Shown here piece by piece: positions 737-4,337 of a stretch of DNA of 47,257 bases (within the stretch, counting starts at the first letter, position 1; each line of letters opens with the position of its first letter). Source of the stretch: a virus (taxonomy: Duplodnaviria > Caudoviricetes); IMG/VR virus record IMGVR_UViG_3300042199_000262, positions 1 through 47,257 of that record. One strand, given 5' to 3'. The notes beneath the pieces were generated by a model. It was not told the DNA's origin, did not search any database, and saw nothing but the letters and a program-made list of their open reading frames with translations. The translations under genes and the position numbers were made by a program.

Positions 737-1726
737 ATGCCACTAAGACCAATATTACCTCAAGAACCTTTAGTTATATTAAATGCAGCAGTAGACCGTG
801 ATGGTGTCTATTGGAAAGGCTCACAGCCTAACAATTGCTCATTGACTAGCACTCATATTATAATGAACGGAGGTCGTGCAGGACTAATCTCTGATATGTC
901 TCCTGTGTTTACTAATCCCATTCTTCGTGATGTTTTAATCACAGTTAAGAAGGGAGATAAAATGACCACGATGTGGGGAGTTCGTCGCCACCAATTAAGA
1001 AACCCACAAACTATAAGAGTTCGTGTTGTAGATACTACTCGTCCTGCCTTGTTTGAAACTTCAGGAATTACCTACATGAAAGAACACGCCATATACGATG
1101 AAATCGAAAGTGGCGAAGCATTGTATGAATGTTGCTCTGGAGACAACATTCCAGCCCAATTACTACAGATTCGTCTTGCTGGTAACAGGTCTGACCCAAA
1201 GTGGGCCAATCCAAGACACATCGTCGTTACCGACATTCATGGAAATGAGATTGGACAAAAGAGAGGTTTAGCTAGAGCAGCCTTCGCTGTATCAATAAAG
1301 GATTCTGGTCCTAACGGAACTGTAGTTATAAAAGATCCATTCCTCAAGACTGTTCAACAAACACAAGTTGCTAAAAGATCAGATGGTACTTGGGCAGACT
1401 CATTTGCTGCTGTGTGCATCGAATACTGCAAATCACTAAATTGGACTGGTGGCTACATCGGATACAAGAATCCTAAGATGACCGCAGTTCAACTATTTGA
1501 TTTTGCAAATAAGGCAGGAGGACAAACGGGTCCAGAGGAAATCGTTATTGATGGTCTTACCTTAGATCACAACAATGGAATCACTTTGAGACTAGACAAT
1601 ACAACCAAGAAGGTTGATATTAGAAACTGTGTAGGTACTGGAGACATTACCATATTCAAGATGGCATCTGATGGTGTCTATCGTGTGTGGAAGAAAGTAC
1701 CAGTAGCTCAAGGATTCACTTACTAG
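737..1726 (+). CDS. Hypothetical protein, beta-strand rich
   Basis: 329-aa ORF with GGAG SD, no competing long ORF, no recognised motif. Confidence 0.7.
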   Translation: MPLRPILPQEPLVILNAAVDRDGVYWKGSQPNNCSLTSTHIIMNGGRAGLISDMSPVFTNPILRDVLITVKKGDKMTTMWGVRRHQLRNPQTIRVRVVDTTRPALFETSGITYMKEHAIYDEIESGEALYECCSGDNIPAQLLQIRLAGNRSDPKWANPRHIVVTDIHGNEIGQKRGLARAAFAVSIKDSGPNGTVVIKDPFLKTVQQTQVAKRSDGTWADSFAAVCIEYCKSLNWTGGYIGYKNPKMTAVQLFDFANKAGGQTGPEEIVIDGLTLDHNNGITLRLDNTTKKVDIRNCVGTGDITIFKMASDGVYRVWKKVPVAQGFTY

Positions 1727-1727
1727 A

Positions 1728-1817
1728 TGGTGCTGATGGTAGGAGTCGAGCCTACGGGGTCAATTTAATAACAACAGATTTACAGTCTGCTCCCGCCCCC
1801 TACGGGTCTACATCAGC
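1728..1817 (-). tRNA. tRNA-Tyr(GUA), atypical D and T arms
   Basis: Acceptor GCTGATG/CATCAGC-ACCA; anticodon arm GCAGA-CTGTAAA-TCTGT; long variable arm; T arm GTAGG-CTCGACT-CCTAC. Confidence 0.85.
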
Positions 1818-2248
1818 TTATAATATCGTAATCTTTTTTTATTTGCTTTGCCTTTGTTTAGAGCTTTATATGTGCTAGTGAGCGCATGGCAATTAGGACA
1901 TAATACTCTAAGATTTTCTGGTCTGTTATTTGTGCTATCACCATCAATGTGATCTATCTCTAAGGGACTCCTGTTGGTAACTGGATTAATTTTATTCCAA
2001 CCACATTGAATACATTTGTGATCTGCTTGTTCTAATAAGTAAGTTCTTATTGAATTTGATAGTTGATTTCCGTTATTTTTTGTGCCATCAAAAGTCCCCG
2101 ATTTCCAATTATTAACTTTTTGATCGCTCTGGTACTTTTGTTGACACTTTACAGAACAATATTTCCCCTTTTGAGCAGTTTGTAAGTATTCAAACTTAAT
2201 ATTGCAAAATTTACAAAGTGATTCTTTTCTTTTTTTTGGATTTGACAT
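1808..2248 (-). CDS. Free-standing HNH endonuclease with N-terminal Cys-rich domain
   Basis: CIQC...LEIDHIDGDSTNNRPENLRVLCPNCH; N-terminal CKFC...YCSVKC; ATG at 2248 (alternative 2266). Confidence 0.9.
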   Translation of the reverse strand: MSNPKKRKESLCKFCNIKFEYLQTAQKGKYCSVKCQQKYQSDQKVNNWKSGTFDGTKNNGNQLSNSIRTYLLEQADHKCIQCGWNKINPVTNRSPLEIDHIDGDSTNNRPENLRVLCPNCHALTSTYKALNKGKANKKRLRYYKLM

Positions 2249-2310
2249 AGTAGATCTCTTATACATATATATAGTAGATCTAGAGTTCAATTTTAAAAGA
2301 AATTTTAAGT

Positions 2311-2384
2311 TGGTGACTCCACCGAGACTCGAACTCGGATAGACTGGTTAAAAGCCAGATATTCTGCCATTGAATTATGGAGTC
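2311..2384 (-). tRNA. tRNA-Lys(UUU)
   Basis: GACTCCA/TGGAGTC-ACCA; anticodon loop CTTTTAA; T loop TTCGAGT. Confidence 0.92.
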
Positions 2385-2390
2385 ATGTAA

Positions 2391-2467
2391 TGGTATCCCC
2401 AGAAGGAATCGAACCTTCAACCTGATGATTAGAAATCATCTGCTCTTTCCTGTTGAGCTATGGGGAC
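2391..2467 (-). tRNA. tRNA-Arg(UCU)
   Basis: GTCCCCA/TGGGGAT-ACCA; GATGA-TTTCTAA-TCATC; GGTTCGATTCC. Confidence 0.95.
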
Positions 2468-2469
2468 TT

Positions 2470-2542
2470 GAAAAAAACCACAGGCTGTTATACCCGTGGC
2501 TCGGGAGGAACCTCCCCGACCACCATTCAAGAGGTGAATGGA
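2470..2542 (-). ncRNA. Three tandem hairpins ending in a U7 tract (small RNA and/or intrinsic terminator)
   Basis: Minus strand CCATTCA-CCTCT-TGAATGG, TCGGGGAG-GTTC-CTCCCGA, CCACGGG-TATAACAG-CCTGTGG-TTTTTTT. Confidence 0.5.
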
Positions 2543-2601
2543 TCGTTGTTTGGTAGGGATGGCGGGAATCGAACCCGCACGCCTTAGGGGCTTCAGATTT
2601 T

Positions 2602-3280
2602 CTTACTACTTCGGCTTTCACCGCTGCTATATACCTAAAGGGTACACGCATTTGTAGTCTGGACTATGCCTTTGCCTTTCCTAGTTACAGGAGTCAGGCA
2701 CTAACCGTCTAGTCTCTACACACATTACATTATTATGAAATATAAATACACCATTGAACAACTTAAAGAAGCTATAACAACTAGCAATTCTATTCGTGAA
2801 GTTTTAATGAGGCTTAATATCATTCCAGCAGGAGGGAATTATGCTACATTAAAAAAACAAATTAAGCTGCACAAATTAGATATATCACACTTCAAAGGCA
2901 AATCTTGGAACAAGAATAGAAAATTTGGACATAAACGTCCTATTGCATCTTATTTATGTAATCAATTCTCTATAACATCTCATCGTCTACGTCAAAGACT
3001 AATTCAAGAAGGTTTATTCAAACCTCAATGCTCAAATTGCAATCTTAAGAGTTGGTTAGGTAAAAATATACCTCTAGAATTAGATCATATTGACGGAGAT
3101 CATGAGAATAATAATCTTTGTAACTTAAGATTACTTTGTCCAAATTGCCATGCTCTTACACCTAATTATAGGGGTAAAAACATAAAAATGTAATTTGGCT
3201 CGGCGTTGCCATGTTAAAGGTTTCACCGAATTTGGTTAGTTCTCAGTAAAGGATTTCTCCTTTATGACTCATATAGTTAA
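2602..3280 (-). mobile_element. Group I intron (trnL-UAA / IC3-like), 679 nt
   Basis: IGS GAGTC pairs with exon GACTT (U.G at the splice site); P AAATTCGGTGAAACC; Q GGCAACGCCGAGCC; R GTAGAGACTAGACGG; S GGCATAGTCC; P3 ACTAACC/GGTTAGT; P7 GACTA/TAGTC; terminal G at 2602. Confidence 0.93.
2735..3193 (+). CDS. Intron-embedded HNH endonuclease, antisense to the intron
   Basis: CSNC...PLELDHIDGDHENNNLCNLRLLCPNCH; intact 152-aa ORF lying between intron elements Q and R. Confidence 0.92.
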   Translation: MKYKYTIEQLKEAITTSNSIREVLMRLNIIPAGGNYATLKKQIKLHKLDISHFKGKSWNKNRKFGHKRPIASYLCNQFSITSHRLRQRLIQEGLFKPQCSNCNLKSWLGKNIPLELDHIDGDHENNNLCNLRLLCPNCHALTPNYRGKNIKM

Positions 3281-3329
3281 AAGTCTGATGTGTCTGCCTA
3301 TTCCACCACATCCCCGTTATTTTAAAGAG

Positions 3330-3525
3330 CTAAGTTGCAATTTTAGTTTAACGCACGCAACGAAACATAATGGATAAATTGCAAAAACCCCCAACATAGC
3401 CACCTCTGTTCTTAACGTCCATCGGGCGAATGGTACTCGGACGTTTTCAGCTATGTCAAACGCTTGCTGTAGCCGCAGCGATAAAAAATGTACGCCATCG
3501 TTGACACTCAACAACGTACTCGCAT
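3330..3525 (-). ncRNA. Candidate structured RNA between tRNA-Asn and tRNA-Leu
   Basis: Several nested or tandem inverted repeats: 3335-43/3376-84, 3394-3400/3450-56, 3414-20/3439-45, 3466-69/3476-79, 3490-94/3515-19, 3500-04/3508-12. Confidence 0.55.
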
Positions 3526-3526
3526 T

Positions 3527-3601
3527 TGGCTCCTCGGGTAGGGCTCGAACCTACAACCAATCGGTTAACAGCCGATTGCTCTACCATTGAGCTACCGAGG
3601 A
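3527..3601 (-). tRNA. tRNA-Asn(GUU)
   Basis: TCCTCGG/CCGAGGA-GCCA; ATCGG-CTGTTAA-CCGAT; GGTTCGAG. Confidence 0.95.
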
Positions 3602-3609
3602 ACCTTCAA

Positions 3610-3846
3610 TCACAGAGTAGTATCATTCTTCCAGAAACCACCCTCAGGCTCAATCTCATCCGTAAGTCCGAGGATAACCTTGAGTTCGTTAGCAGTATCA
3701 ACAAGCTCATTACGTCGATTGATGATATTCTCACGTTGAGCATCAATTTGAGAAAGAGCATTATCCATCTGCTTAATACCTTGTTCAGCACCTTCGAGCA
3801 TCTGAGCAAGGAACTTATCACGCTTGTCAACAGTCTTTTCAGTCAT
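3610..3846 (-). CDS. Small coiled-coil hypothetical protein (78 aa)
   Basis: MTEKTVDKRDKFLAQMLEGAEQG...; AAGGA SD upstream; the longer start in the ORF track lies inside tRNA-Ile. Confidence 0.75.
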   Translation of the reverse strand: MTEKTVDKRDKFLAQMLEGAEQGIKQMDNALSQIDAQRENIINRRNELVDTANELKVILGLTDEIEPEGGFWKNDTTL

Positions 3847-3873
3847 AATTATATCCTTTCTGATATATTGTTT

Positions 3874-3950
3874 TGGTACGCCTACTTGGACTTGAACCAA
3901 GAACCTACCGCTTATAAGACGGCAACTCTAACCGATTGAGCTATAGGCGC
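3874..3950 (-). tRNA. tRNA-Ile(UAU)
   Basis: GCGCCTA/TAGGCGT-ACCA; GCCGT-CTTATAA-GCGGT; GGTTCAAGTCC. Confidence 0.92.
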
Positions 3951-3962
3951 GTTGTTCTATAG

Positions 3963-3969
3963 ATTATAG
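3963..3969 (-). promoter_or_regulatory. CTATAAT -10 element upstream of tRNA-Ile
   Basis: Consensus TATAAT 12 nt before the tRNA 5' end; the same CTATAAT recurs before several genes. Confidence 0.55.
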
Positions 3970-4002
3970 TCGCTGATAAGCTGGATTTTATTTATTTTCT
4001 TG

Positions 4003-4077
4003 TGGAGCGGAAAACGGGACTCGAACCCGCAACAGTCAGCTTGGAAGGCTGAAACTCTACCATTGAGTTATTTCCGC
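4003..4077 (-). tRNA. tRNA-Gly(UCC)
   Basis: GCGGAAA/TTTCCGC-TCCA; TCAGC-CTTCCAA-GCTGA; GGTTCGAGTCC. Confidence 0.95.
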
Positions 4078-4337
4078 TTGTCGCACTCACAGTATGTCGG
4101 GACACCCACAAACGTGCGAGTATCAGTCTCGCTATCATAGTCGCAAGTGTAGCATTTCATGTCCACAAAAACATCGGTAATAGCATGATGCTTAGTATTC
4201 TTAACAAAATTCTTTACAGCGTTAGCTACAATATACAAAACGCTTTCATTACTATCATCATTGTAGGTTGTGATGGCAGAATAACCATCTTCATCAAGCC
4301 AATGGATTTCTACATTCCAACGCTTACCGTGTGCCAT
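4068..4337 (-). CDS. Hypothetical protein with C-terminal CxxC...CxC
   Basis: 89-aa ORF directly after the Clp gene; stop codon lies inside tRNA-Gly. Confidence 0.65.
   Translation of the reverse strand: MAHGKRWNVEIHWLDEDGYSAITTYNDDSNESVLYIVANAVKNFVKNTKHHAITDVFVDMKCYTCDYDSETDTRTFVGVPTYCECDKRK

Follow-up and report, generated by a model that had tools for sequence, protein, structure and literature searches.

A phage tRNA-Leu(UAA) gene is split by an apparently active group I intron with an antisense HNH gene, probably for a homing endonuclease

Introns of the Leu.3Ug class are inserted in tRNA-Leu(UAA) genes as CUU/...g/AAAA, and introns above approximately 400 bp may contain protein genes (Williams, 2020). 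According to a review from 2014, all phage group I introns had been seen in protein genes despite the many tRNAs of phages, and there was little evidence for horizontal movement of bacterial introns (PMC3984707). In the collaborative homing model, a free-standing nuclease that is pre-adapted to the insertion site of an intron recombines into that intron (PMC2988022). Other authors have reported HNH genes in the vicinity of tRNA arrays, assigning them no target (PMC6582537, PMC8421152). The introns of Jug phage have been described in protein genes. Bonocora and Shub are said to have described, in 2001, a Synechocystis tRNA-fMet intron with an anticodon-region endonuclease, I-Ssp6803I; that system presumably differs from the locus treated here in its tRNA, in its nuclease (PD-(D/E)XK, not HNH) and in involving no phage.

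The DNA analysed here, referred to as the window, is a 47-kb virus record (47,257 nucleotides) with near-identical DNA in freshwater metagenomes. The phage is T4-like, with a capsid protein only approximately 29% identical to cyanophage capsids. The minus strand holds a tRNA cluster of six ordinary tRNA genes and a seventh, split tRNA-Leu(UAA) gene flanked by tRNA-Asn and tRNA-Arg (Table 1). Default ARAGORN overlooks this gene, and split tRNA-Leu(UAA) genes escape default annotation. A first-pass annotation, made from the letters alone, had read the locus as two tRNA halves separated after U34 by a 679-nt group I intron, and the junction, the helices and the covariation among related introns all uphold this reading. 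Joined in silico, the exons gave an 86-nt tRNA-Leu(UAA) fold. Nine junction offsets were tried, and only the chosen one placed U before the intron and G at its end; a shifted join (-1,+1) also scored as Leu(taa), but without the terminal G.

Table 1. Positions of the features of the split tRNA-Leu(UAA) gene in the window.
Feature	Position	Strand	Remarks
tRNA-Leu(UAA) 5' exon	3281..3315	-	ends GACUU (U34)
Group I intron, 679 nt, Leu.3Ug site	2602..3280	-	terminal G at 2602
Internal guide sequence GAGUC	3266..3270	-	P1, pairs with exon GACUU, U-G at splice site
P2, P3 5' strand (3240-3234), P4/P5 (3230-3199)	3199..3264	-	
HNH endonuclease ORF, 152 aa	2735..3193	+	antisense, loop 6; closed by P6a (3194-3187 with 2731-2724)
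P7 5' strand with G-binding pair (2716-2710), P3 3' strand, P8, S element (2672-2661)	2661..2716	-	
P9.0, P9, P9.1, terminal G	2602..2658	-	
tRNA-Leu(UAA) 3' exon	2551..2601	-	AAAAUC...CCA
Extent of 677-nt circle	2602..3278	- by intron orientation	from X12 and X13 (RNA); one of three equivalent registers, terminal G to base 3

The helices of the window intron are P1 (GACUU/GAGUC), P2 with a GAAA loop, P3 (ACUAACC/GGUUAGU), P4 (UUCGGU/GCCGAG), P7 (G-A-GACUA/UAGUCC), P8, P9.0 (ACUAC/GUAGU) and P9.1. The ORF is closed by P6a, an 8-bp stem (AUUACAUU/AAUGUAAU) whose 5' arm coincides with the last ORF codons. Related introns (142 distinct ones) were compared: the pairs of P3, P4, P6, P7, P9.0 and P9.1 were kept in 132-142 of them, with compensatory changes in P3, P6, P7, P9.0 and P9.1, and the U-G pair at the splice site (U3281-G3270) was conserved in all 142. 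The two outer P1 pairs were kept in just 35 and 43 of them, the outermost P3 and innermost P8 columns were unconserved, and the third P6 pair, paired in 138, is a C-U mismatch in the window. A search with a group I model had been proposed at first pass. The ORF interrupts the model, so that Rfam RF00028 gave 27 bits over the 5' part of the window intron only, below its cut-off (50 bits); the cut-off was passed by five of seven ORF-less relatives. The compact layout of P2, P5 and P9 is consistent with subgroup IC3. The insert is a real group I intron, and apparently an active one.

Likeness to the trnL(UAA) intron of cyanobacteria and plastids had also been proposed, and here the insertion site agrees but the core signature does not. 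In the nine cyanobacterial trnL introns that were resolved, Q was AAUCCUGAG in all nine, and R was GUGCAGAGACUC and P7 GACUC/GAGUC in eight, whereas the window has AACGCCGAG, GUGUAGAGACUA and P7 GACUA/UAGUC. Since the core differs, the window intron is of the same class by site but not of the cyanobacterial trnL lineage. The two cyanobacterial rows formed a long branch of their own in the intron core tree, which is weak (115 columns, with only these two cyanobacterial rows passing extraction). The same compact core was also found in tRNA-Met and tRNA-Lys genes and in apparent phage capsid, terminase and polymerase genes (L002, L003, L004, L007, L009, L053, L075 and others), some of these latter copies having other nuclease ORFs in P6 or P8. 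Pyrinomonadaceae genomes often had one to three such introns, many of them outside tRNA-Leu (L616-L645).

Four RNA runs were compared with positions 1600-4300 of the window. X12 and X13, two freshwater samples of one study, each gave one 707-nt contig that ran over 2600-3276 and returned to its start. The contigs describe a circle of 677 nt, approximately 99% identical to the window intron (7 differences), at depths of 37.6 in X12 and 15.4 in X13, and covered neither exon, nor 1873-2418. The circle joint has three equivalent registers of the same sequence (an ambiguity of 2 bases), one of them being G2602 to base 3 (3278). This evidence consists of assembled, strandless RNA contigs from the two samples. 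X17 and X18 had no circle; X17 contained fragments and an ORF-less relative, and also showed a joint 2576-3332. The small word shares of runs X18-X20 are no evidence for habitat. The DNA assemblies of the window and of the related loci L122 and L123 were continuous across both intron-exon junctions. An RNA circle without exons points to excision of the intron in nature. Of the splicing expected at first pass, excision is indicated in two of the four runs; the ligated-exon junction of the spliced tRNA was absent from all four. In addition, one contig end in X12 joined 3332 to 3277/3278 (intron base 3 or 4) over 15 letters only, and the leader joined at 3332 ends in CUU, like the 5' exon; this could be a circle reopened by a 5'-exon mimic, or an artefact.

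Several other features of the tRNA cluster were recorded. Approximately 200 unannotated nt between tRNA-Asn and tRNA-Leu (3331-3526, minus strand) were wholly or partly covered in each of the four RNA runs, and in X12 and X13 their depth equalled that of the circle. This stretch had no Rfam match and no unusual folding energy, and was found elsewhere only in L122 and L123. Directly behind tRNA-Leu, at 2465-2550 on the minus strand, there are three stacked hairpins with a U tract at the end (z -4.25), a probable terminator or processing signal within the cluster. The variable arm of tRNA-Leu (2575-2592) differs between L123 and the window although the intron is near-identical, and L123 has an extra tRNA-like insert of 77 nt behind tRNA-Asn (window position 3525). 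A second, free-standing HNH gene lies between tRNA-Lys(UUU) and tRNA-Tyr (1808-2290, minus strand). Nineteen of its 20 closest viral relatives, near-duplicates counted in, adjoin tRNA-Lys(UUU), and more distant relatives often adjoin tRNA-Thr(UGU); it is likely to represent a second tRNA-tracking nuclease family.

The ORF in the intron is intact, as the first-pass annotation had it. PHROG 10822 ("HNH endonuclease") matched the protein at E 1.8e-41, and Pfam gave no family at E 0.001. Among solved structures no sequence relative was found (best E 0.19) and none by Foldseek at E 0.001, which returned only weak fold matches to the HNH domains of McrA and Cap5. Identities as ZorE and IscB were discarded, the NCBIfam matches lying far below cut-off. 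The structure model, of good confidence (pLDDT 89.8), has three N-terminal helices followed by the nuclease domain. Residues C99, C102, H118, N126, N130, C135, N137, C138 and H139 were invariant in 61 of 61 aligned proteins; they comprise the zinc ligands and the HNH (beta-beta-alpha-metal) motif, and all are intact in the window protein. Both motifs were intact in 50 of 53 antisense clusters. Compared with L123, the window ORF differs by 19 synonymous and 11 non-synonymous changes, a dN/dS of 0.14; the ratio was 0.06-0.19 in other close antisense pairs where dS was unsaturated, and all seven ORF differences between the window and the RNA contigs were synonymous. By these substitution patterns, the HNH ORF is evidently under purifying selection.

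How the antisense gene is expressed was approached through promoter-like signals. In the window, a consensus promoter scan gave no plus-strand site upstream of the ORF, and there is no ribosome-binding site before the ATG; among relatives, 31 of 53 had SD-like motifs. A -10-like hexamer in P8 was seen in 23 of 50 antisense introns; it follows the antisense of S (TGGACT), taken as the -35, at a distance of 16-19 nt, with a peak at exactly 17 nt (18 of the 23). The same hexamer occurred in two of 67 ORF-less and one of 10 sense introns (four sense introns were dropped for having no anchor), and a matched control within Pyrinomonadaceae was weak (2/5 against 0/5). We treat the P8 promoter as no more than a lead: the introns compared share clades, a long P8 also occurs in Pyrinomonadaceae introns without an ORF, and the window lacks the -10 box. 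Two other candidates were rejected. One was a T4-type late promoter on the plus strand, TATAAATA at 2741, which falls within codons 3-5, is not conserved in L123, and has 4 plus-strand and 5 minus-strand occurrences in the window; the antisense P9 region showed no excess of promoters over ORF-less introns. These findings bear on the reading that the intron splices while the HNH gene has recently become a promoterless passenger in the window phage, homing being only ancestral. The window, having neither a promoter-like site nor an SD, agrees with it, and so do the Pyrinomonadaceae, in which ORF-less and ORF-bearing introns are mixed (five and five), suggesting that the ORF can be lost. The exclusively synonymous differences from the RNA contigs and the low dN/dS against L123 speak instead for recent selection on the protein, and we regard the passenger reading as unlikely.

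Of 1896 candidates, 1810 were relatives of the HNH protein with an E value of 1e-10 or better. For comparison we took 80 loci from viral contigs, 80 from genomes and 80 from metagenomes (n=240), the best among the matches listed for each collection; this sample leans towards the query. As many as 213 of them lay inside or within 250 nt of a tRNA-Leu(UAA) gene. Of these, 68 sit in the intron (56 antisense, 12 sense), and the rest are free-standing, 40 next to an ORF-less intron and 105 next to an uninterrupted gene. Truncated contigs are among the remaining 27 loci, as are three beside tRNA-Leu(CAA). Two unrelated HNH genes without tRNAs (L124, L125) and two loci with miscalled junctions (L093, L108) were dropped, and two unpublished genomes were left out of the comparison, with no claim built on them. 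With motif-selected loci added to the protein-selected ones and clustering at 90% identity, this query-biased sample comprised 55 antisense clusters (the window, 9 viral, 22 genome and 23 metagenome) and 14 sense clusters. The antisense orientation, which the first-pass annotation had taken as unusual, is thus neither rare in this family nor specific for phages. The bacterial genome cases belong to Gammaproteobacteria, often behind tRNA-Cys, and Pyrinomonadaceae; most are metagenome-assembled, and one is an isolate, Salinisphaera sp. PC39. In the Rhodococcus phage Francesca, which is in culture, a free HNH copy lies 38 nt behind tRNA-Leu(UAA).

A scan for the R motif, independent of the protein and covering 20 of 64 parts of the viral collection, gave at least 121 loci (approximately 390 stretches by estimate). 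Seventy-two of the 121 splice in silico to tRNA-Leu(UAA), comprising 65 short introns, six with HNH and one long without it. ORF-less and intron-less alleles in other phages, for which a survey had been suggested at first pass, do exist; for the window phage itself no intron-less allele was found, L122 and L123 both carrying the intron. In a phylum sample drawn around a cyanobacterial genome the HNH gene was present in six of 201 genomes, with tRNA-Leu(UAA) within the fetched stretch at four of seven HNH loci, always uninterrupted. Phage and bacterial copies were intermixed in both the protein tree and the intron core tree, which is compatible with the viral route of intron spread proposed earlier but gives no direction. 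The protein tree was poorly resolved, with 97 of 201 inner branches open and the window in no starred set, and a single origin of the antisense state, which we had considered, is not something that such a tree decides.

The rejoined site was GACTT/AAAATC in all 91 intron-bearing clusters, in a junction search that fixed YTT and [AC]A and left the other site letters free. Beside free HNH genes, the core site was intact in only 18 of 88 uninterrupted tRNA-Leu(UAA) genes. Among viral genes only and with a matched pattern, GACTTAAAATC was intact in 7 of 22 genes beside free HNH against 84 of 106 nuclease-free genes (Fisher p=3e-5, a value overstated because related loci are not independent). The control consisted of 106 distinct viral tRNA-Leu(UAA) genes from one of the 64 parts, some of them short-flanked; 53 of 68 with full flanks were intact. 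Lineage habits, such as the C30-G40 stems of Patescibacteria, add to the overall depletion. Depletion of the site beside free HNH is what a nuclease with its DNA target at the insertion site would be expected to leave, and the 18 exceptions indicate that the core alone is not the whole target, which may be longer or variable, or that those enzymes differ or are inactive. Carriers of the HNH gene would then survive either by the intron or by an altered anticodon stem. The window has no intact copy of the site. Among 31 genomes from the family to which Salinisphaera sp. PC39 belongs, 30 had an intact site and neither the intron motif nor HNH, and all seven sites that were checked were tRNA-Leu(UAA); PC39 alone has the intron and HNH, and no intact site. 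This patchy pattern fits a recent gain.

We therefore hold it probable, on the strength of the family's association with one tRNA and of the site pattern, that the backwards HNH gene encodes a homing endonuclease, which would cut uninterrupted tRNA-Leu(UAA) genes at the anticodon arm so that the intron is copied in. Homing into intron-less tRNA-Leu genes, as suggested at first pass, agrees with the family pattern. The proposed course is as follows. The tRNA cluster would be transcribed from the minus strand, judging from the orientation of its genes, and the ribozyme would splice after U34, the freed intron circularizing after its second base; the circle was seen in a strain approximately 99% identical, and exon ligation is inferred. 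The HNH protein would be made from a separate plus-strand transcript, as purifying selection implies, and would nick or cut the DNA in or beside GACTT^AAAATC of co-infecting phages or host chromosomes. The intron would then be copied in by repair with the intron-bearing allele as template, as the family context and site avoidance suggest. The element's own gene would be protected, its site being visibly destroyed by the intron. The element most likely arose when a free tRNA-Leu-specific HNH gene inserted into an ORF-less intron at its own target, and this collaborative-homing route was most likely taken several times, in both orientations. Such a family offers small nucleases (approximately 150 aa) that are predicted to be site-specific.

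The same enzyme might serve mainly as a weapon against the tRNA-Leu(UAA) genes of co-infecting phages or of the host chromosome, with the intron as immunity and homing as a by-product. Targets would be common, the site being intact in most of the nuclease-free viral genes and in nearly all sampled genomes of the PC39 family (84/106 and 30/31, as above), and interference competition is the reported role of a nuclease from an intron of phage PhiPA3 (PMC11620839). The same antisense element occurs, however, in 22 clusters from bacterial genomes, a setting that offers no obvious use for a phage weapon, and selfish homing accounts for both settings; we find a mainly offensive role quite improbable.

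The convergent HNH transcript had also been proposed to act as an antisense RNA modulating splicing. In its fuller form, this reading makes the transcript a regulator that tunes both splicing and the supply of tRNA-Leu. Any plus-strand transcript starting upstream of the ORF must overlap P7/P3, many relatives' ORFs extend into the complement of P6/P4, and the same concern has been raised for antisense genes in nuclear rDNA introns (PMC9548176). The proposal did not gain support, since no conserved regulatory feature and, in the window, no promoter was found, and sense, antisense and free-standing forms coexist; regulation of this kind appears very improbable. Interference is likelier in the opposite direction, from intron RNA on the HNH mRNA, because RNA of the intron side was abundant enough to assemble as a circle. 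It is conceivable, though we would rather doubt it, that the HNH family specific for tRNA-Leu(UAA) supplies the missing engine by which the trnL intron moves between phages and bacterial chromosomes, and that it is combined with a self-limiting antisense switch. A stable circle, antisense to the nuclease mRNA over its full length, would silence the nuclease wherever the intron is spliced, leaving it active only in a naive cell; such silencing would follow from the geometry and the presence of the circle. A last reading makes the HNH protein an RNase that cuts host tRNA-Leu(UAA) at the anticodon, the variant tRNAs nearby serving as antidote. It fits the altered anticodon stems of neighbouring intron-less tRNAs but is hardly credible, because the spliced tRNA regains the common sequence in 91 of 91 intron-bearing clusters and the intron would protect DNA only, not RNA.

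The preferred reading, a homing endonuclease encoded backwards in a tRNA intron, was finally compared with described systems. No description of the element was found in the open-access literature, which formed our scope; subscription work, e.g., that of Rudi and colleagues on lateral transfer of trnL, lies outside it. Such cases go unmentioned in the text of a 2025 paper on an intron database, and the main text of a paper on huge phages mentions neither introns nor homing (PMC7162821). Against the literature covered, the phage tRNA host, the tRNA-Leu-specific HNH family, its prokaryotic antisense form and the circle appear to be new. The Leu.3Ug introns (Williams, 2020) share with the window the site CUU/...g/AAAA, U at -1 and the terminal G. 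That survey dealt with bacterial and archaeal assemblies, and its main text has no phage case, nuclease family, orientation or target; its table, figures and supplements may list ORF-bearing or prophage cases. With regard to the 2014 review, tRNA-Leu(UAA) introns made up 72 of the 121 viral loci of our motif scan over 20 of 64 parts of the viral collection, and one of them is apparently excised in nature. Lak megaphages have introns in tRNA genes as the window does; these were called enigmatic, in the part of the paper considered, with no group I classification and no nuclease named (PMC6784885).

The group I intron of Azoarcus pre-tRNA-Ile is, like that of the window, a tRNA intron of the anticodon loop, and its U2-first circularization corresponds to the fitting register of the circle; it differs in tRNA and site, in its length of 205 nt, in having no ORF and in being chromosomal (PMC13168695). 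The nuclear rDNA introns Dsq.L2066 and Dir.S956-2 have an antisense nuclease gene as in the window, expressed in their case from a separate transcript, but they are eukaryotic, of subgroup IE and hosted by rRNA, with a His-Cys box nuclease and the separation given by the nuclear compartment (PMC9548176). In the proposed scheme the window element would work like a classical mobile group I intron, and a site-fixed nuclease family that is present in phages and patchily in bacteria makes horizontal movement of the intron testable. T4 SegB likewise acts in a phage tRNA region, but is a free-standing GIY-YIG nuclease with no tRNA intron (PMC2330249), whereas the HNH family displays all stages of the collaborative-homing model at one tRNA site.
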